The position numbers and the translations under genes are program-made. A DNA stretch of 64,000 nt from contig JAUYOV010000004.1 of assembly GCA_030697795.1 (NCBI GenBank), forward strand, positions 77,886-141,885, read 5' to 3'. Numbering within the stretch: the stretch's first letter is position 1; each line of letters starts with the position of its first letter. Source of the stretch: a bacterium (GTDB taxonomy: Bacteria; Patescibacteriota; Minisyncoccia; JACQLN01). Shown here piece by piece: positions 44,603 through 57,962 of the stretch. The notes beneath the pieces are model-generated. The model saw only the letters and a list, made by a program, of their open reading frames with translations, ran no database searches and was not told the DNA's origin.

Positions 44603-45124
44603 TTAAGTAAAATTCTTTAGTATTACCTTATTCAGTAATGCCGTAGTAGAAACAAATTCTCCTTTCATTTCTTTTCTAAGACAAATTTTAATTCCATATT
44701 TATCGGCAATTTTTTGTTTTAACAGCAAAGCTTTATCATCGGGTGGCAACATATAATATGTGGGACAGATAATAGATATAATTTTTTCGTGATCAATACG
44801 TCCCTTAAGGGGTTCTTTTAAAATAACCACATAATCCACACACTCAAGGGTAGCAAGCAGTTCAGCTCTATGTTTTTCAGAAAAAACCGGGCGATTTTCA
44901 CCCTTGAGTGCTTTTAAGGTTTTGTCACTACCTAATCCTACAACCAAGATATCTCCTATACTTTTGCAATAACGAAGAGCTCGAACATGCCCAATGTGAA
45001 AAATATCAAAACAGCCTGTCTTAAAAACAATTTTTTTGCTATCGTGATGAAGTCGCTTTGCAATGGTTGCCGCCTCTTTATAGGAAATAATTTTTGTTTT
45101 ATATCTATTTTCCATACAGTTCAT
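44603..45124 (-). CDS. cytidylyltransferase (glycerol-3-phosphate cytidylyltransferase TagD/TarD-like)
   Basis: [14 protein letters not shown] (HxGH) nucleotidyltransferase signature in a ~170 aa protein. Confidence 0.7.
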
Positions 45125-46043
45125 ACCATTTAATCGTCTTTCTTAAACCATCTTCAAAGTTTGTCTTAGCCTTAAAATTAAACTCTTTTTCGGCCCTAGA
45201 GGTATCCAATAATCGACGTGGTTGGCCATCGGGCTTAGATTTGTCCCACGTTAACTTGCCTTTAAAATTAGCTAGTTCCGCAATTTTTTCGGCAAGATTT
45301 TTTATAGAAATCTCATTACCAGAACCTAAATTTATAGGTTCCGAATTATTATAATACACTAAAGCCTTAACTATGCCCTCGGCAGCATCTTCGGCATATA
45401 AAAATTCTCTTGTAGCTTCACCGCTACCCCACACCTCTACTGTATTTAGATTTTGTTTTTTGGCTTCAAAAACTTTTTTTATTAAAGCCGGTATGACATG
45501 AGAAGAAGCAGAATCAAAATTATCACCGGGACCATAAAGATTAACAGGCAAAAGAGTTACAGCATTAAAATTGTACTGTTGACGATAAGCAGAGGCCTGA
45601 ACTGCTAACATTTTTTTAGCCAAACCATAAGGTGCATTTGTTTCTTCGGGATAACCATTCCAAAAATCTTCTTCTTTAAAAGGCGAAGGCGTAAATTTAG
45701 GATAGCTACAAATAGTTCCTACCGCTAAAAATTTTTCCACGCCGACTTGGCGAGCCGCTTCCATAAGCTGAATACCCATAATAGCGTTATCGTAAAACAA
45801 AGATGCGGGGTTTTCTTTGTTATAGCCAATTCCGCCAACTTTAGCAGCCAAATGTATAATAATATCCTGCCCAGCAACAACCTGTTCACAATTAGAACGA
45901 TCTCTTAAATCGCAATCTCGGGATCTTGGAATTGTTATATTTTCTATACTGGCACCATTTTTTAATAATTCGGACACAACAAATTTACCCAAAAAACCTG
46001 CGCCACCCGTTAATAAAATTTTTTTACTCGCAAGATTAAACAT
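45105..46043 (-). CDS. fcl: GDP-L-fucose synthase (GDP-4-keto-6-deoxymannose 3,5-epimerase-4-reductase)
   Basis: LAAKVGGI...SYPK...NAPYGLAKK...NLYGPGDNF...SHVIPALI aligns along the whole Fcl length. Start is MFNLASKK. Confidence 0.85.
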
Positions 46044-46047
46044 GGTT

Positions 46048-47409
46048 TTAATATAACAATGATAACAAAAACTTTCCAATTCTTTCGCCCGAATAGCCAT
46101 CCAGTTTCCAGCACTGATTTTCAAGCATTTCTTTTCTAGCAGAAGTATTTAAATCGGGATTTTTTAAACTAGCATCTAAGTATTTTTTAAATTCTTCAAT
46201 ATTTTGAGCCGAAAACATTGCACCTGATTTTATAATATCGTAAGGGTGTTGGTATTCTAAAAATCTTTTAACACTTTGCCAATATGGTTTTTTATCAAAC
46301 CCATCAAAATGTATTAAAATAGTAGGTTTACTAAATATAGCGGCATCGATACCAATAGAACCTCCGCCCGCAACAATAACATCAGAGTGGTAAAGACAAT
46401 CGGCCAACCAATCCATATCTGCATCGATTAATTCCTGATCTCTGATGCTTCTACCTTCAAAACTTCGGCCAGGCTTATCAATACAAAAATTCTCATCTGG
46501 AATAAACTTACCCAGATGTACTGGATCATTTGGCGTAAACCTTATCAAAACTTGAGCAGGTATAATTTCCTTATTTTTAATAAAGCCTTTTAAAATTTCC
46601 ATAATCTGCCAATCTGTATCTGTAAAACGCCCGCCAAAAGGAGAAAAAAGTATTAATTTTTGTTTTGGATCCAAACCTATTTTTTTAAAAAACTCTTCAC
46701 GATTCATTCTTTCACCATTAATATAGCGATCGTATTGAGGAATACCCGATATAAAAATATCTTTTTTAGAAAAATCGTTATATTTAATTGCTTGTTTCTG
46801 AAGTATTTCATTGTGAACTATCAACTTATCCGGCTTAATACGTAAAATGCCTTTGGAGGTCAAATTATCCCACGAGCGGATCATGCCTATGGTGCTAACG
46901 CCCCTGCGCTTAGCCGTAGCCAACAAAAAAATATCGTTATCATTAAAAACATCTGTGATAAAAACAAGTTGTGGTCGATATTTAAAAAAGTAATTTGAAC
47001 AATAATCTTTTCTTATAGTTGAATAATCTAATCGCCTCACTAGCGCTTTGAATATTGGTAACCGGCTAAACAGTTCCATTATCAGCCACGAAACAGCAAA
47101 ACGAAACCATCTACCGTCCCGCGCTAATCTAACTCGTTTATTAACCAAAATAGTCCTTGTACTAACTAAAGAACTGGTAAGATATTTAAATATAGTGTCT
47201 CGGCGTGAAGTTTTCCAAACTGCTACACCCTCAACAATCACATTAGGCGCACCAATTTCATGTTTAAAAAAATCAGCTTTGTAATCGGGCACAAAAACTA
47301 CAACTTTTATACTGGCATCTATCTTAAGTGTTTTTAAAACATTGCTTGCCAAAACGTTCCTTAGGATAAAAGGGTTGAAAGCTGATATAAAAATAGTTTT
47401 ATTTATCAC
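46048..47409 (-). CDS. CDP-polyol phosphotransferase, TagF/TagB-like (Glyphos_transf), paralogue 1
   Basis: SWDNLT, GIPQYD (like GYPRxD) and SD...IDAAIFSKP (like TDYSS..FD..KP) motifs. Confidence 0.65.
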
Positions 47410-55830: not shown

Positions 55831-56153
55831 AATGCCATAGCTATCGCATGTTTTTTAGTGTGCGACAAAGATATTAAAAACTTGCCTTTTTGACCTTTAA
55901 CTTTTGCGCTGGGAACACCGTCTTGGCTGCTAGTAATTCCTATGTCGATCAAATCTTTTAATCTTAAGCCGACTGCTTTAATAATAGCTTCCTTAACTGC
56001 AAAACGCACAGCAAAATGGGGGTAGGGATCGACTTTAGACAAACAATAATTTATTTCAGCAAAAGTAAAAATCTTTTTATAAAAAGACTGATTGCTTTTA
56101 TACGGCAATTTTCTAAAGCGGCCAACTTCTTCAATATCTATACCTATTTCCAT
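55818..56153 (-). CDS. acpS: 4'-phosphopantetheinyl transferase (holo-ACP synthase, AcpS type)
   Basis: GIDIEEV...FAVKEAIIKA motifs in a 111 aa protein. Confidence 0.75.
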   Translation of the reverse strand: MEIGIDIEEVGRFRKLPYKSNQSFYKKIFTFAEINYCLSKVDPYPHFAVRFAVKEAIIKAVGLRLKDLIDIGITSSQDGVPSAKVKGQKGKFLISLSHTKKHAIAMALWLN

Positions 56154-56602
56154 GGTAAATTTATTCTGTAAAAATTGGTTTCCTTCTTTATAAAGCCCAT
56201 ACTTATATACATAGCATTGGACTCTATTCTAACTGGGTTAGTCCGAACACTGATGTGTTTGGCCTTTTTCGCCATGGCAATCTCTATTAATTTCTCGGTC
56301 AATTTGCGTCCCAAACCTTTGCCACGATAGGCCATATCGACTACAACATCTTCAATAACTGAAATAGCCCCCGTAGGAATATAAACTAAATACACAGTGG
56401 CCATAGCAATAATTCTGGATAACTTTTGGCTAGAATCAACAACCGTAACAAGATAAACATTATTTTGTTTCAGTAAACGCTTGAGTCTAGCGGGCGTAAG
56501 AAGTTTGGGAGGCACGCTTGAAAGCGCCAACTGTGGCAGAAGTTGGTTGATATCTTGAAGAACCTTTGTGCTAAACTTTCTTAAAATTTGTATTTTAAAC
56601 AT
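56144..56602 (-). CDS. GNAT acetyltransferase, paralogue 2
   Basis: YRGKGLGRKLTE motif; collinear with 47406-47864. Confidence 0.75.
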   Translation of the reverse strand: MFKIQILRKFSTKVLQDINQLLPQLALSSVPPKLLTPARLKRLLKQNNVYLVTVVDSSQKLSRIIAMATVYLVYIPTGAISVIEDVVVDMAYRGKGLGRKLTEKLIEIAMAKKAKHISVRTNPVRIESNAMYISMGFIKKETNFYRINLPWK

Positions 56603-56609
56603 ATTTATT

Positions 56610-57962
56610 TTAGCTAAGCCGTTTTATTAAAAAATCAGCTACTCGTCTGCCGGCTTGGCCATCAACACTTAAACATTGTGAACTAACTAATTTCCTCCTA
56701 CCTTCATTATCTAATCTGGGATCATCTAAATAGTTATTCAACCATTTTACTAACTCGTTTTCGTTATTGGCTAAACGAACCCCCCCAGTTTTTAAAATAA
56801 ATTGATAGTGAGCTACTTTATAAGCCCATAAAACAAAATTCATGGGATGGATCTTTCGTTCAAATTTTATATTAATTATAGGCTTATCAAAAATAGCTGC
56901 GTCAATCATCATAGTTGAAGGATAACCCACTACCACATCCGAATAATAAAGAGTATCAGCCAAACTCCTAAAATCGGCAAAATTCATATCCCAATCCATA
57001 CCCCTTTTACTGGAAAATCTCTTACCGGGAATTTGGAATATAAACTTATTTTTATAACTCTTTTTAACCACCACTTCATCATTGGGAGGAAATCTAACAA
57101 TCACTTGACAAGGAAAATTCAAGCGTCCGCTAGATATTATTTCATCAAAAAACTCTAACATATCCCAATCGTCATCACTAGCTGTTCGGCCTACTGGTAA
57201 ATAGAGAATATTTTTTTTATCTCGACTTAAACCTAATTTTTCATAAAACTGATCGGCTGGTGTTCTTTTTTCTTTAAAATAATAATCAAAATGGGGCACA
57301 CCTACTGCAATTATTTGTCTTTCTGGAATATCAATGTATTTTACAGCATCATCTTTAACTAAATCATTATGAACCATCAACCAATCCGGCAGAAGTCTTA
57401 CCATGGCTCGAGCTGTTATTTTATCCCAGGAATTAATAAGGCCTACGGTAGTAACCCCCCTATGTTTAGCTTCACGGAGCATGGCAATTTCAACACCACC
57501 AAAAAGATGCGCCAAAAATACTAGACTGGGTTTATATTTATCAAAGTAAGAAGAGAAAAAATCTTCCGAAATAAGATACCAATCCAGCCAGCGTACAATC
57601 CGACGAAAAAACCTTCTAGCAAAAATACGATTAAAAAAGTATCGATATAGAAACTTAATAAAGCTTTTATCTGAGTTGAATAACAACTTTCTTTTAATAT
57701 CAATTGTGGCAGTGTTAATTAGGTTAAATTTGATAGCACCGAATAACTTTTGTAATAAACCTTTAGCAATATAGTTCTCAATTACTTGATAAACAATATT
57801 TGGACCATTAAATTCTTTCTTATAATATTCTTTCTTGGCTTCGCTATCAACAAATAAAACCAACCTGACATAAGGGGTCTTAGCCAATTTTTTATAAATG
57901 TCGGTGCGTAATATATTTCTAGCTTCTACACCTTGAAAAATTGTTACAAAAATAGTCTTCAC
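56610..57962 (-). CDS. CDP-polyol phosphotransferase, TagF-like, paralogue 3
   Basis: INSWDKIT, GVPHFD, STMMIDAAIFDKP. Confidence 0.65.
   Translation of the reverse strand: MKTIFVTIFQGVEARNILRTDIYKKLAKTPYVRLVLFVDSEAKKEYYKKEFNGPNIVYQVIENYIAKGLLQKLFGAIKFNLINTATIDIKRKLLFNSDKSFIKFLYRYFFNRIFARRFFRRIVRWLDWYLISEDFFSSYFDKYKPSLVFLAHLFGGVEIAMLREAKHRGVTTVGLINSWDKITARAMVRLLPDWLMVHNDLVKDDAVKYIDIPERQIIAVGVPHFDYYFKEKRTPADQFYEKLGLSRDKKNILYLPVGRTASDDDWDMLEFFDEIISSGRLNFPCQVIVRFPPNDEVVVKKSYKNKFIFQIPGKRFSSKRGMDWDMNFADFRSLADTLYYSDVVVGYPSTMMIDAAIFDKPIINIKFERKIHPMNFVLWAYKVAHYQFILKTGGVRLANNENELVKWLNNYLDDPRLDNEGRRKLVSSQCLSVDGQAGRRVADFLIKRLS

Follow-up and report, generated by a model that had tools for sequence, protein, structure and literature searches.

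Positions 44603-57962 of the 64,000-nucleotide window (the whole stretch of DNA that was analyzed) are best explained as the section for acyl tailoring within a large glycan locus of a Patescibacteria-type genome; this locus starts near 25.4 kb and runs past 64 kb. Linkage, gene fusions and a predicted fold make it fairly probable that the encoded proteins N-acylate a nonulosonic-acid precursor in the cytoplasm, with carrier proteins supplying the acyl groups. As judged by sequence comparison, the cassette, uncharacterised so far, recurs across many bacterial phyla. A preliminary description of this DNA had proposed that carrier-protein systems acylate a polyol-phosphate polymer or a nonulosonate; the carrier systems and the nonulosonate target were supported by our analysis, whereas the polyol-phosphate core was not. 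The genes that it described proved real and form an operon, but the TagD label, the strength of the TagF similarity and the DltA/DltC identity were not borne out, and the Neu genes lie beyond its coordinates.

Organization of the operon

The genes of the operon are all on the minus strand and are tightly coupled (Table 1): from 57962 down to 51210, neighbouring starts and stops overlap or are 3-13 nt apart. The operon encodes an FkbH-ACP pair, an amino-acid adenylation enzyme with a carrier, an AcpS-type phosphopantetheinyl transferase (PPTase), two small GNATs, a 365-aa tandem-GNAT protein and three proteins with weak PF04464 matches. NeuB, NeuC and NeuA homologues are in the same locus as described before, but outside 44603-57962. 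The NeuA-like protein scored 177 bits on the PseF model TIGR03584, below the cutoff of 206.

Table 1. Features of the operon and linked nonulosonic-acid genes, by position in the window
Position	Strand	Feature	Profile match or other evidence
31684-32406	-	CMP-nonulosonate synthetase-like cytidylyltransferase (NeuA-like)	PF02348 101 bits
39153-40430	-	Hydrolysing NDP-hexosamine 2-epimerase, NeuC/LegG type	TIGR03568 323 bits, cutoff 236
40427-41545	-	Nonulosonic acid synthase, NeuB family	PF03102 249 bits; below NeuB and PseI equivalog cutoffs
41574-42533	-	D-2-hydroxyacid dehydrogenase (2HADH), co-conserved with NeuC/NeuB	PF02826 165 bits
44603-45124	-	Nucleotidyltransferase, RfaE-domain-II-like	TIGR02199 107 bits, TagD TIGR01518 36 bits; both below cutoff
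45105-46124	-	GDP-L-fucose-synthase-like SDR	NF047922 275 bits, below cutoff 500
46048-47409	-	GT-B "TagF-like" paralogue 1	PF04464 32 bits; NF046086 55 bits
47406-47864	-	Small GNAT acyltransferase, 152 aa	PF00583 39.6 bits
47866-49230	-	GT-B "TagF-like" paralogue 2	PF04464 32 bits; NF046086 71 bits; TIGR04396 29 bits
49244-51091	-	Polytopic membrane protein, 615 aa	~10 hydrophobic segments
51210-51458	-	Dedicated ACP for FkbH, 82 aa	PF00550 25.2, cutoff 20.8
51445-53016	-	FkbH-type HAD-IIIC enzyme (glyceryl loading onto ACP)	TIGR01686 304 bits, cutoff 147
53020-54117	-	Tandem-GNAT, N-myristoyltransferase-like acyltransferase, 365 aa	AlphaFold and Foldseek
54108-54338	-	Aminoacyl carrier protein, 76 aa	PF00550 22.3, cutoff 20.8
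54316-55830	-	Stand-alone amino-acid adenylation enzyme, loads next carrier	TIGR01733 389, cutoff 317
55818-56153	-	AcpS-type phosphopantetheinyl transferase	PF01648 62.6, cutoff 25; TIGR00556 57.7, cutoff 45
56144-56602	-	Small GNAT acyltransferase, 152 aa; paired with preceding TagF-like gene	PF00583 45 bits
56610-57962	-	GT-B "TagF-like" paralogue 3	PF04464 47.5 bits, C-terminal half; NF046086 48 bits

The SDR and the 615-aa membrane protein were absent from the preliminary description. The SDR probably belongs to a deoxyhexose branch, outside the acylation module. The membrane protein, for which no Pfam or NCBIfam match was found, is 36% identical to a 634-aa paralogue at 37225-39129 and is conserved in the related loci L001, L005, L081 and L084. 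The enzyme at the distal end of the operon had been labeled a TagD-like cytidylyltransferase; this name was rejected, its TagD score being far below the cutoff of 165, and the protein resembles heptose-1-phosphate adenylyltransferase (RfaE domain II).

Two carrier-protein loading systems

Both loading systems were confirmed by profile matches above the cutoffs. In FkbH the DLDNT motif is at residue 189, and the DxDxT motif and Cys441 were invariant across 14 diverse homologues. The FkbH-side ACP has its DSF serine at residue 33, and in the best 80 genome loci an ACP adjoins FkbH in 45. Enzymes of the FkbH family take a C3 unit from 1,3-bisphosphoglycerate to form glyceryl-S-ACP.

The second pair had been called DltA- and DltC-like. 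It does consist of an adenylation enzyme and a carrier, but both miss the equivalog cutoffs (DltA TIGR01734, 351 against 560; DltC, 25 against 52). The best PDB matches of the enzyme were NRPS adenylation domains and DltA (LgrA, prolyl-carrier ligase and DltA); it retains the Asp (HFDLS) and Lys (GKIDR) residues that are usual in enzymes activating alpha-amino acids, and ~60 homologue clusters share its putative pocket code, DLF[ND]FNMVQK. The carrier has its DSF serine at residue 34, and its best NCBIfam name, below the cutoff, was ornithine-lipid ACP (OlsHI-ACP model). The two enzymes, this one and FkbH, are neither ligases of lipid metabolism nor plain HAD phosphatases, the affiliations named in the preliminary description as incompatible with its proposal. 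The AcpS-type PPTase was also identified correctly; its gene immediately precedes that of the adenylation enzyme in L081, L082, L085, L086, L088, L091, L092, L094 and L156. As stated before, DltB and DltD are missing: no MBOAT or DltD match was found in the window, in which every ORF long enough was scanned.

The tandem-GNAT protein

The AF2 model of the 365-aa protein (pLDDT 93, pTM 0.91) had N-myristoyltransferases (NMTs) as top Foldseek matches (E ~1e-13, TM 0.56-0.58). The earlier assignment as a double-GNAT FemAB-like protein thus holds for the tandem GNAT, but for FemAB only as a fold class. R94, G97 and G99, forming the CoA/pantetheine-binding R-x-x-G-x-G motif, are invariant in the family, and so is the C-terminal K..GDQDRPY tail. 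The usual donor of GNAT enzymes is a CoA thioester. Homologues of the tandem-GNAT gene directly follow the gene of a carrier protein loaded by FkbH or by an adenylation domain, and fusions were found to an adenylation domain (P0364), to FkbH (P0346) and to carriers (P0341, P0347, P0353). In our operon the single tandem-GNAT gene sits between the two carrier genes. We propose that one or both carrier proteins, in place of CoA, would donate the acyl group to this enzyme.

TagF-like proteins and small GNATs

The three paralogues reported as TagF-like do match PF04464 above the Pfam threshold, but weakly (32-47 bits) and in the C-terminal half only; they score higher on NF046086, a model of a Tannerella nonulosonic-acid transferase (BFO_1060; cutoff 200, which none of them reaches). 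Against TarL the family profile gave only E=0.004, over ~110 residues. As GT-B proteins they are no more than distant relatives of TagF/TarL, and they accompany Neu genes, not CDP-polyol genes. Paralogue 3 has no hydrophobic segment, is 81% identical to its orthologue in the syntenic L081, and is a probable CMP-nonulosonate-dependent transferase. The two interleaved small GNATs were confirmed; a GNAT is also beside a TagF-like gene in L081, L084, L086 and L005.

Conservation of the cassette

Co-conservation in related genomes, by which the preliminary description had wished its proposal to be judged, was found. Locus L081 has the identical gene order TagF-GNAT-AcpS-A-CP-tandemGNAT-FkbH-ACP (A, adenylation enzyme; CP, carrier) at 55-81% identity, and L088 and L091 have the core AcpS-A-CP-tandemGNAT-FkbH. 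In L082 and L090 the order AcpS-A-CP-tandemGNAT continues into NeuC-NeuA-2HADH and, farther on, NeuB, whereas L086 has NeuA-NeuB-NeuC-SDR-NodB deacetylase-AcpS-A-CP followed by a 356-aa protein. A NeuA-like protein fused to an adenylation domain is beside NeuB in L083. Loci from Saccharibacteria, Acidobacteriota and Verrucomicrobiota have FkbH-ACP-tandemGNAT-NodB deacetylase with NeuC/NeuB/NeuA/2HADH, and 2HADH is beside NeuC/NeuA in L002, L003, L043, L058, L079, L082, L085, L090, L095 and L096.

The metagenome sample comprised 80 loci with a tandem-GNAT homologue. FkbH was upstream of the tandem-GNAT gene in 15 of the 30 loci that had enough DNA on that side, and A-CP directly upstream in all seven close homologues having upstream DNA. 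Of 22 loci, 18 had a NodB deacetylase within 4.5 kb; of the 10 flanked by 6 kb or more on each side, 8 had NeuB/NeuC. In the best 80 genome loci the adenylation enzyme was never within 10 kb of FkbH, which shows that the two modules are separable; in the operon studied here they presumably have a joint target.

Proposed pathway and alternatives

From gene identities, fold, linkage and fusions, all of them direct results of the analysis, we infer the donor, the acceptor, the sequence of reactions and what the TagF-like proteins do as follows. All steps would be cytoplasmic. AcpS would convert both small carriers to the holo form; to our knowledge, fatty-acid synthesis is generally absent from these organisms. 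FkbH would draw the C3 unit from 1,3-bisphosphoglycerate, leaving glyceryl-S-ACP, and since no dehydratase or ketoreductase follows FkbH, the unit probably stays glyceryl. The adenylation enzyme would activate one alpha-amino acid and load the second carrier. Next, the tandem-GNAT would collect the acyl or aminoacyl moiety from the phosphopantetheine arm and pass it to an amine, either of the nonulosonate itself or of its hexosamine precursor. A second acylation, for instance at the alpha-amine of the attached amino acid, may be due to the small GNATs. NeuC, NeuB and NeuA would make the CMP-activated nonulosonic acid of the glycan locus, and the three TagF-like proteins would pass the nonulosonate to a lipid-linked glycan. 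In this model DltB and DltD are not needed because acylation precedes export.

A teichoic-acid-like polymer of polyol phosphate, made by the TagF-like proteins together with the cytidylyltransferase-like protein and esterified from the carriers with an amino acid (Dlt-like) and glycerate without DltB/DltD, is quite improbable. The PF04464 matches, the PF01467 nucleotidyltransferase adjoining TagF-like paralogue 1, DltA and DltC among the best-named NCBIfam matches, and the organism, which we take to be monoderm, are in line with such a polymer. Against it are the RfaE-like nucleotidyltransferase, the remoteness of TarL, and related loci whose TagF-like genes are without the nucleotidyltransferase but with NeuB/NeuC/NeuA; the window and L081-L086 showed no TarI, no TarJ and no further CDP-polyol gene. 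Moreover, the candidate transferases are cytoplasmic and have no membrane segment, unlike extracellular D-alanylation. Comparative genomics supports the nonulosonate and not teichoic acid. Still less credible is a small NRPS/PKS-like secondary-metabolite pathway merely located in the glycan locus. Natural-product clusters are typically marked by FkbH, stand-alone adenylation enzymes, carriers and a PPTase of their own, and NRPS modules were the best PDB matches; however, profile scans of the window's ORFs turned up neither a condensation or ketosynthase domain nor a thioesterase or reductase domain, the genes are tightly coupled translationally to glycosyltransferase genes, synteny inside glycan loci is kept across phyla, and the fusion partner is a GNAT transferase, not an NRPS/PKS part.

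Instead of the nonulosonate, the target of the module could be a different amino sugar within this glycan, a lipid or a protein; for example, the NMT-like enzyme could acylate pilin or an S-layer protein at the N terminus or on lysine. We regard this as unlikely, if the least so of the alternatives. Protein NMTs are the closest solved folds, genes for type IV pili are present at a distance of 10-20 kb, and the second carrier has the ornithine-lipid name (see above). Furthermore, no NodB-type deacetylase that could expose an amine on the precursor was found in the window or in the closest relatives L081, L090 and L091, and no PseC/LegC-type aminotransferase in the locus; the DegT homologue of this locus belongs to the RfbH/ColD-type dehydratases and has His where the PLP Lys would be. 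These points are opposed by the frequency of NodB and NeuB/NeuC beside the tandem-GNAT gene, by the operon order tandemGNAT-NeuC-NeuA-2HADH-NeuB of close relatives and by the NeuA-like fusion, and no pilus genes were linked to the module in the other loci examined. The earlier suggestion that acyl groups go onto the nonulosonate is backed by the same fusion and by the NeuB/NeuC/NeuA linkage in several phyla.

The logic of N-acylation of the nonulosonate precursor resembles that of NodB/NodF/NodA in Nod-factor synthesis. The flagellin glycosylation locus of Campylobacter reportedly contains FkbH, ACP and amino-acid-activating genes, as an uncharacterised precedent. The literature search found no published description of such a pathway, and the earlier statement to this effect appears fair. 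Of the Campylobacter locus, cj1302 is documented (PMC7099621), and products of a comparable kind are Pse5Am7Gra of Tannerella (PMC5378307) and the alanyl-carrying Leg5Ac7AcAla of Vibrio vulnificus (PMC7371886).

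Gene content of the operon

Gene order and identities were assigned with Pfam and NCBIfam models (see the table). With the exception of one methyltransferase gene, all genes from 37225 to the end of the window are on the minus strand, and between 57962 and 51210 successive reading frames either overlap or leave gaps of 3-13 nt, which indicates a single translationally coupled operon. Judged by these models and by motif residues, the gene inventory of the preliminary description was essentially right, and so was its statement on DltB and DltD: no ORF of the window matched MBOAT/DltB or DltD. 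NeuB, NeuC and NeuA homologues are in the same locus, as it had claimed, but outside the stretch 44603-57962. The nearest relatives belong to Parcubacteria, Harrisonbacteria and Paceibacterota.

Genes between 57962 and 44603, in their order on the minus strand
Gene product	Position	Strand	Model or feature
GT-B TagF-like 3	56610-57962	minus	PF04464, NF046086
Small GNAT	56144-56602	minus	Pfam
AcpS-type phosphopantetheinyl transferase (PPTase)	55818-56153	minus	PF01648, TIGR00556
Amino-acid adenylation enzyme	54316-55830	minus	TIGR01733, 388.6 bits (cutoff 317.4)
Carrier, 76 aa	54108-54338	minus	DSF serine
GNAT protein (tandem-GNAT), 365 aa	53020-54117	minus	single N-terminal GNAT domain by sequence
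FkbH	51445-53016	minus	TIGR01686, 304 bits (cutoff 146.65)
ACP, 82 aa	51210-51458	minus	DSF serine
Protein without family, 615 aa	49244-51091	minus	about 10 hydrophobic segments
TagF-like 2	47866-49230	minus	PF04464, NF046086
Small GNAT	47406-47864	minus	Pfam
TagF-like 1	46048-47409	minus	PF04464, NF046086
GDP-fucose-synthase-like SDR	45105-46124	minus	NCBIfam
PF01467 nucleotidyltransferase	44603-45124	minus	RfaE domain II-like

Carrier-protein loading systems

The description of an FkbH-like HAD-IIIC enzyme with its own ACP was borne out by the TIGR01686 score and by the ACP gene, which overlaps the FkbH stop codon by 14 nt. Residues D189, D191 and T193 (DLDNT, the DxDxT motif of HAD enzymes) and C441 of FkbH were invariant in 14 sequences.

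The second system consists of the adenylation enzyme and the 76-aa carrier. In addition to its TIGR01733 score, the enzyme has the Asp of motif A4 (HFDLS, residue 196) and the Lys of motif A10 (GKIDR, residue 489). The pair had been called DltA-like and DltC-like; both proteins are present, but neither reached the respective equivalog cutoff (351 bits on DltA TIGR01734, cutoff 559.85; 25 bits on DltC TIGR01688, cutoff 52). The PPTase exceeded the cutoffs of PF01648 (62.6 against 25) and TIGR00556 (57.7 against 45.35), in agreement with the proposed dedicated AcpS-type enzyme, and scored 45.6 on the AcpS equivalog TIGR00516, below its cutoff of 59.8.

For substrate prediction the ten pocket positions of the adenylation enzyme were taken from motif anchors, with positions numbered as in GrsA. 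The putative code extracted (DLFDFNMVQK) was conserved as DLF[ND]FNMVQK in about 60 clusters, which suggests that one substrate is common to the whole family. We know of no adenylation code that matches DLFDFNMVQK.

The tandem-GNAT protein

Searches of the PDB with the 365-aa protein (phmmer) gave a marginal GNAT match and nothing else, and none of the FemAB-family and NMT Pfam models matched it. Its AlphaFold model, made with 44 homologues (pLDDT 93, pTM 0.91), consists of two GNAT halves and in Foldseek matched N-myristoyltransferases (NMTs) over the whole length (E ~1e-13, TM 0.56-0.58); the top 50 matches were NMTs and an Eis-like tandem GNAT. The double-GNAT assignment was thus correct, and the term FemAB-like is appropriate for the fold class but not for the family. 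The 615-aa protein was rejected as a candidate for this double GNAT, being a polytopic membrane protein.

The first half of the 365-aa protein keeps the pantetheine-binding R-x-x-G-x-G motif, with R94, G97 and G99 invariant. The extreme C-terminus is also invariant (K356, G359, D360, D362 and R363, followed by PY) and recalls, by analogy, the C-terminal carboxylate used by NMT in catalysis. The protein has no hydrophobic segment.

An exhaustive HMMER search (E<=1e-10) found 3,407 clusters of the family at 50% identity, and among them natural fusions of the tandem GNAT to an adenylation domain (866 aa), to FkbH (1,068 aa) and to a carrier (n=3). These fusions, taken together with the invariable place of the gene after a carrier gene, are the strongest evidence that a carrier protein is the acyl source of the tandem GNAT. 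By similarity and position the protein of the window belongs to the adenylation-partnered subfamily.

Conservation in related loci

Eighty genome loci with an FkbH alignment were searched with all proteins of the window. The FkbH+ACP pair proved to be widespread in bacteria and archaea, often together with AcpS; 38 of 84 related loci had a MaoC dehydratase and an SDR as well. The order FkbH-ACP-365-aa homologue (22-31% identity) was found in nine loci from Patescibacteria, Acidobacteriota, Verrucomicrobiota and other lineages. All nine had a NodB-type deacetylase nearby, and most had NeuB, NeuC, a NeuA-like gene and a D-2-hydroxyacid dehydrogenase (2HADH).

Homologues of the adenylation enzyme (50-79% identity) are common in Patescibacteria. 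One related locus (L081) showed full synteny with the window, with MaoC, SDR and TylF-methyltransferase genes added after the ACP. In L082 the order was TagF-AcpS-adenylation enzyme-carrier-tandemGNAT-NeuC-NeuA-2HADH-...-NeuB, and L085 had this core plus FolD and a formyltransferase. L086 contained NeuA-NeuB-NeuC-SDR-NodB-AcpS-adenylation enzyme-carrier-356-aa protein, and L087, on a 1.6-Mb contig from outside Patescibacteria, contained NeuB, NeuA, DegT, the adenylation enzyme, a formyltransferase, a carrier and an N-acyltransferase. In L083 a NeuA-like cytidylyltransferase and an adenylation domain were fused in one protein, with NeuB adjacent.

A metagenome scan with the 365-aa family yielded 80 further loci, and the order AcpS-adenylation enzyme-carrier-tandemGNAT-FkbH was met again in two of them (L088 and L091). 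These were the best-scoring loci, not a random sample, and tblastn easily overlooks short carriers, which makes the following fractions indicative only: the adenylation enzyme and carrier were directly upstream in all seven close homologues with upstream DNA, FkbH was upstream in half of the loci with enough upstream DNA (15/30), a NodB deacetylase was within 4.5 kb in 18 of 22, and NeuB/NeuC were present in 8 of the 10 loci whose flanks extend 6 kb or more on each side. As to the co-occurrence analysis proposed in the preliminary description, the order of the window was kept in full in L081 and from AcpS to FkbH in L088 and L091; FkbH and the adenylation enzyme occur jointly in these loci, but the adenylation enzyme was found in none of the 80 FkbH genome loci.

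Nonulosonate genes and TagF-like proteins

NeuC exceeded the cutoff of TIGR03568 (323 against 236 bits). The NeuB-family synthase was below the cutoffs of both the NeuB (274 against 400) and the PseI model (228 against 340), and the NeuA/PseF-like cytidylyltransferase was below that of PseF (177 against 206).

The three TagF-like paralogues passed the gathering score of PF04464 (31.8, 32.4 and 47.5 bits against 22.1), but the match was restricted to the C-terminal half (profile positions ~110-367). A profile of 15 family members found only TarL (8va1) in the PDB, over the last ~110 residues (E=0.0044, 19 bits), phmmer with TagF-like 2 gave no PDB match, and a structure model from the three-paralogue alignment, of low confidence (pLDDT 62), resembled GT-B folds in general, TagF ranking 37th or lower. 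The paralogues scored higher on NF046086, the BFO_1060 family (54.8, 71.3 and 48.4 bits), without reaching its cutoff of 200; NeuC, NeuB and NeuA are present in the locus together with them. BFO_1060 is a TagB-like protein of Tannerella forsythia that is genetically required to add a Pse/Leg derivative to the S-layer glycan (PMC5420450). TagF-like genes adjoin Neu genes in eight related loci (L002, L003, L005, L079, L082, L084, L085 and L086), and in the related loci, where they stand beside NeuB/NeuC/NeuA, the nucleotidyltransferase is absent. Because of the weak PF04464 scores, the better NF046086 scores and the Neu-gene neighbours, the TagF-like proteins are probable CMP-nonulosonate transferases.

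Proposed pathway and alternatives

In the proposed pathway AcpS would convert both carriers into the holo form and FkbH would produce glyceryl-ACP, the established chemistry of its family; FkbH-ACP of the window has no dehydratase or ketoreductase, unlike many relatives. The adenylation enzyme would load one alpha-amino acid onto the 76-aa carrier, and the tandem GNAT would transfer the carrier-bound group, in the cytoplasm, to an amine of the nonulosonate or of its hexosamine precursor. NeuC, NeuB and NeuA would then lead to the CMP-sugar, whose nonulosonate would be transferred by the GT-B proteins. The donor, the acceptor and the type of nonulosonate in this scheme are inferred. As every acylation step would precede export, a lack of DltB and DltD is just what the scheme leads one to expect.

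The fate of glyceryl-ACP is less clear than the aminoacyl route: it might be used by the tandem GNAT or by a small GNAT. In L084 a 149-aa GNAT ends the FkbH-ACP-MaoC-SDR set. By analogy with the formyltransferases of L085 and L087, a small GNAT might also be the enzyme that caps the aminoacyl group at its alpha-amine.

A teichoic-like polymer esterified independently of DltB and DltD would suit the PF04464 matches, but the evidence for the TagF-like proteins as teichoic-acid polymerases is thin and they are not filed here as teichoic-acid enzymes. The neighbouring gene, taken for a TagD-like cytidylyltransferase in the preliminary description, turned out otherwise, as it scored 107 bits on RfaE domain II (heptose-1-phosphate adenylyltransferase) and 36 bits on TagD (TIGR01518, cutoff 165). 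No TarI/TarJ-type match that could account for CDP-glycerol or CDP-ribitol supply was found in the window or in L081-L086. The other part of the polymer core proposed there, three TagF-like paralogues, stands as far as PF04464 is concerned. We consider esterification of such a polymer improbable. Acylation of another sugar, or of a protein or lipid, has a somewhat better chance but is still unlikely. It is favoured by the lack, in the window, of a NodB homologue (tblastn, best E>1) and of a PseC/LegC-type aminotransferase; Neu genes that recur next to tandem-GNAT genes in related loci speak against it. For a nonulosonate precursor as acceptor in the window, one possible source of the amine is an NDP-hexosamine that never carried an acetyl group and is acylated directly.

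We regard an embedded secondary-metabolite pathway as highly improbable.

Comparison with known systems

In Nod-factor chemistry NodB is the deacetylase, NodF the acyl carrier protein and NodA the N-acyltransferase. The consensus cassette of the related loci likewise encodes a NodB-family deacetylase, a dedicated carrier and an N-acyltransferase together, which by analogy suggests that a sugar is first de-N-acetylated and then acylated anew, with a carrier-protein thioester as donor. In contrast to the Nod system, the transferase is a tandem GNAT and not NodA, the donors would be glyceryl or aminoacyl instead of fatty acyl groups, the acceptor is likely to be a nonulosonate precursor, and the window, unlike 18 of 22 related loci, lacks NodB. 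Dlt D-alanylation is similar in that a stand-alone adenylation enzyme loads a small dedicated carrier, and DltA structures match the adenylation enzyme at ~250 bits. It differs in that the proteins of the window stay below the DltA and DltC equivalog cutoffs and DltB and DltD are missing there, and in that teichoic acids are esterified extracellularly, whereas a soluble GNAT would probably act on a sugar precursor in the cytoplasm. In polyketide synthesis, FkbH/OzmB systems supply glyceryl-ACP for methoxymalonyl-ACP and tetronates; TIGR01686, DxDxT, the invariant Cys and the adjacent dedicated ACP are shared with them. In contrast to those systems, the window has no downstream PKS, and the unit would be passed on, within the glycan locus, to a transferase of GNAT type. 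The MaoC dehydratase and SDR that follow FkbH in 38 of 84 related loci suggest lactyl-type units as a further difference.

With NMT and the tandem GNATs FemX, MshD and Eis the 365-aa protein shares two GNAT halves, the donor site in the first half and a strictly conserved C-terminal tail, at ~12% sequence identity and without a Pfam NMT or FemAB match. Its context is bacterial and sugar-linked, and its donor is probably carrier-bound, not CoA- or tRNA-bound.

Flagella, S-layers, capsules and LPS commonly bear sialic-acid-like sugars whose N-acyl groups are unusual (glyceroyl, hydroxybutyryl, alanyl and others); such sugars influence recognition by the immune system and the binding of phages. 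The C. jejuni flagellin glycosylation locus contains additional ACPs as well as an "amino acid activating enzyme". Its cj1299-cj1308 region includes an FkbH-domain gene, cj1302 (PMC7099621), in a Pse/Leg locus with glyceric-acid derivatives among its glycans; no biochemical characterisation of these genes was found in the literature. T. forsythia has a nonulosonate with an N-glyceroyl group, Pse5Am7Gra (PMC5378307), and its transferase Tanf_01245/BFO_1060 is a TagB-like GT-B protein (PMC5420450), whose NCBIfam model fits the TagF-like proteins better than PF04464, although 48-71 bits falls far short of the cutoff. Neither paper describes where the glyceroyl group comes from. Both Pse5Am7Gra and Leg5Ac7AcAla (PMC7371886) are known structures that the proposed products would resemble.

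In the papers found, the enzymes that install most of the unusual N-acyl groups are not named, and in none is nonulosonate acylation connected, at the enzyme level, with FkbH, ACPs or adenylation enzymes. The earlier statement that this is not a described pathway thus agrees with the literature found: chemistry and parts are familiar, and the combination, with tandem GNATs as carrier-dependent sugar acyltransferases, was not found described. Tentatively, the ~350-aa NMT-like tandem GNATs may form a large family of carrier-protein-dependent sugar N-acyltransferases, which together with NodB deacetylases and interchangeable loaders would constitute a modular "re-acylation" system that accounts for the range of N-glyceroyl, N-lactyl and N-aminoacyl groups on sialic-acid-like sugars in bacteria and some archaea, and would include the missing enzymes for Pse5Am7Gra and Leg5Ac7AcAla. 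The loaders would be FkbH for C3 hydroxyacyl units and adenylation domains for amino acids. The locus and its relatives offer a testable enzyme set (loader, carrier, tandem GNAT and usually deacetylase) that would allow prediction of N-acyl types from genomes and provide parts for chemo-enzymatic synthesis of modified nonulosonates. Patescibacteria, poorly understood and mostly uncultured, invest in elaborate surface glycans with their own PPTase for them.

Other features of the locus and its relatives

Formyltransferase genes are inserted in the adenylation-carrier-tandemGNAT cassette of L085 (11784-14536, plus FolD) and L087 (11571-12479), which suggests that the amino acid is N-formylated, either on the carrier or after transfer. 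MaoC and SDR genes go with FkbH-ACP in many relatives, for example L081 (14736-16522), L084 (11758-12853) and L079 (8620-9816); they are fused to each other in L079 and L043, and L081 has in addition a TylF-type O-methyltransferase. In these relatives the C3 unit may thus end up as a lactyl- or O-methylglyceryl-type group. The window has none of these three FkbH-ACP partners. Archaeal FkbH + ACP + AcpS, often with a MaoC-like dehydratase, were seen in MAGs of Nitrososphaerota, Nanoarchaeota, Woesearchaeota, Asgard and Micrarchaeota (L004, L006-L009, L011, L016, L019, L023, L029, L033). Since fatty-acid synthesis that depends on ACP is generally missing from archaea, the set has the look of a carrier system complete in itself.

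The 2HADH gene (41574-42533) is co-conserved with NeuC/NeuA/NeuB across phyla (L002, L003, L043, L058, L079, L082, L085, L090, L095, L096) and in Patescibacteria a cupin and an EamA transporter often come after it.

The wider locus also encodes a polyprenyl-phosphate sugar transferase, a sugar C-methyltransferase, a GDP-mannose 4,6-dehydratase (35375-36358; TIGR01472, 522 against 415) and an RfbH/ColD-type PMP-dependent 3-dehydratase (58683-59993; NF011936, 580 against 423 bits). The latter is the DegT homologue, in which His replaces the PLP Lys (SFYAAHHITTGEGG); the RfbH score and this replacement rule it out as a PseC/LegC aminotransferase. Both dehydratases and the SDR at 45105-46124 suggest a colitose-like 3,6-dideoxyhexose branch. 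A split transketolase, with the N- and C-terminal halves as separate genes, is directly upstream of the 3-dehydratase (stretches 61196-62490 and 60000-61175); it is kept in L081 and partly in L001, and in the window, as in L091, an aspartate-aminotransferase-like gene lies between the halves. One possible role is the addition of a two-carbon branch to a sugar. In view of the dehydratase, transketolase, C-methyltransferase and other genes, this is a complex glycan locus in which several unusual sugars are made.

The 615-aa membrane protein and a 634-aa protein (37225-39129) are polytopic paralogues with 36% identity and no Pfam or NCBIfam match. A YRD..YLPRARE..DGH.PP stretch is conserved after the first hydrophobic segment, and homologues are beside TagF-like genes in L001, L005, L081 and L084; a role as GT-C-like glycosyltransferases or polymerases is conceivable. 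The locus also encodes a Wzy_C + TPR protein (29419-31659), perhaps an O-oligosaccharyltransferase of the O-antigen-ligase type. Type IV pilus genes (5628-16777: prepilin peptidase, PilC-like, two T2SSE ATPases, PilM) are upstream of the glycan locus, and pilin glycosylation is a possibility. The 137-aa ORF at 63479-63892 is not a fragment or pseudogene; it is the C-terminal portion of an SDR gene extending past the window end: 63479-64000 aligns in one frame, up to base 64000, with residues 188-360 of the SDR orthologue in L081.
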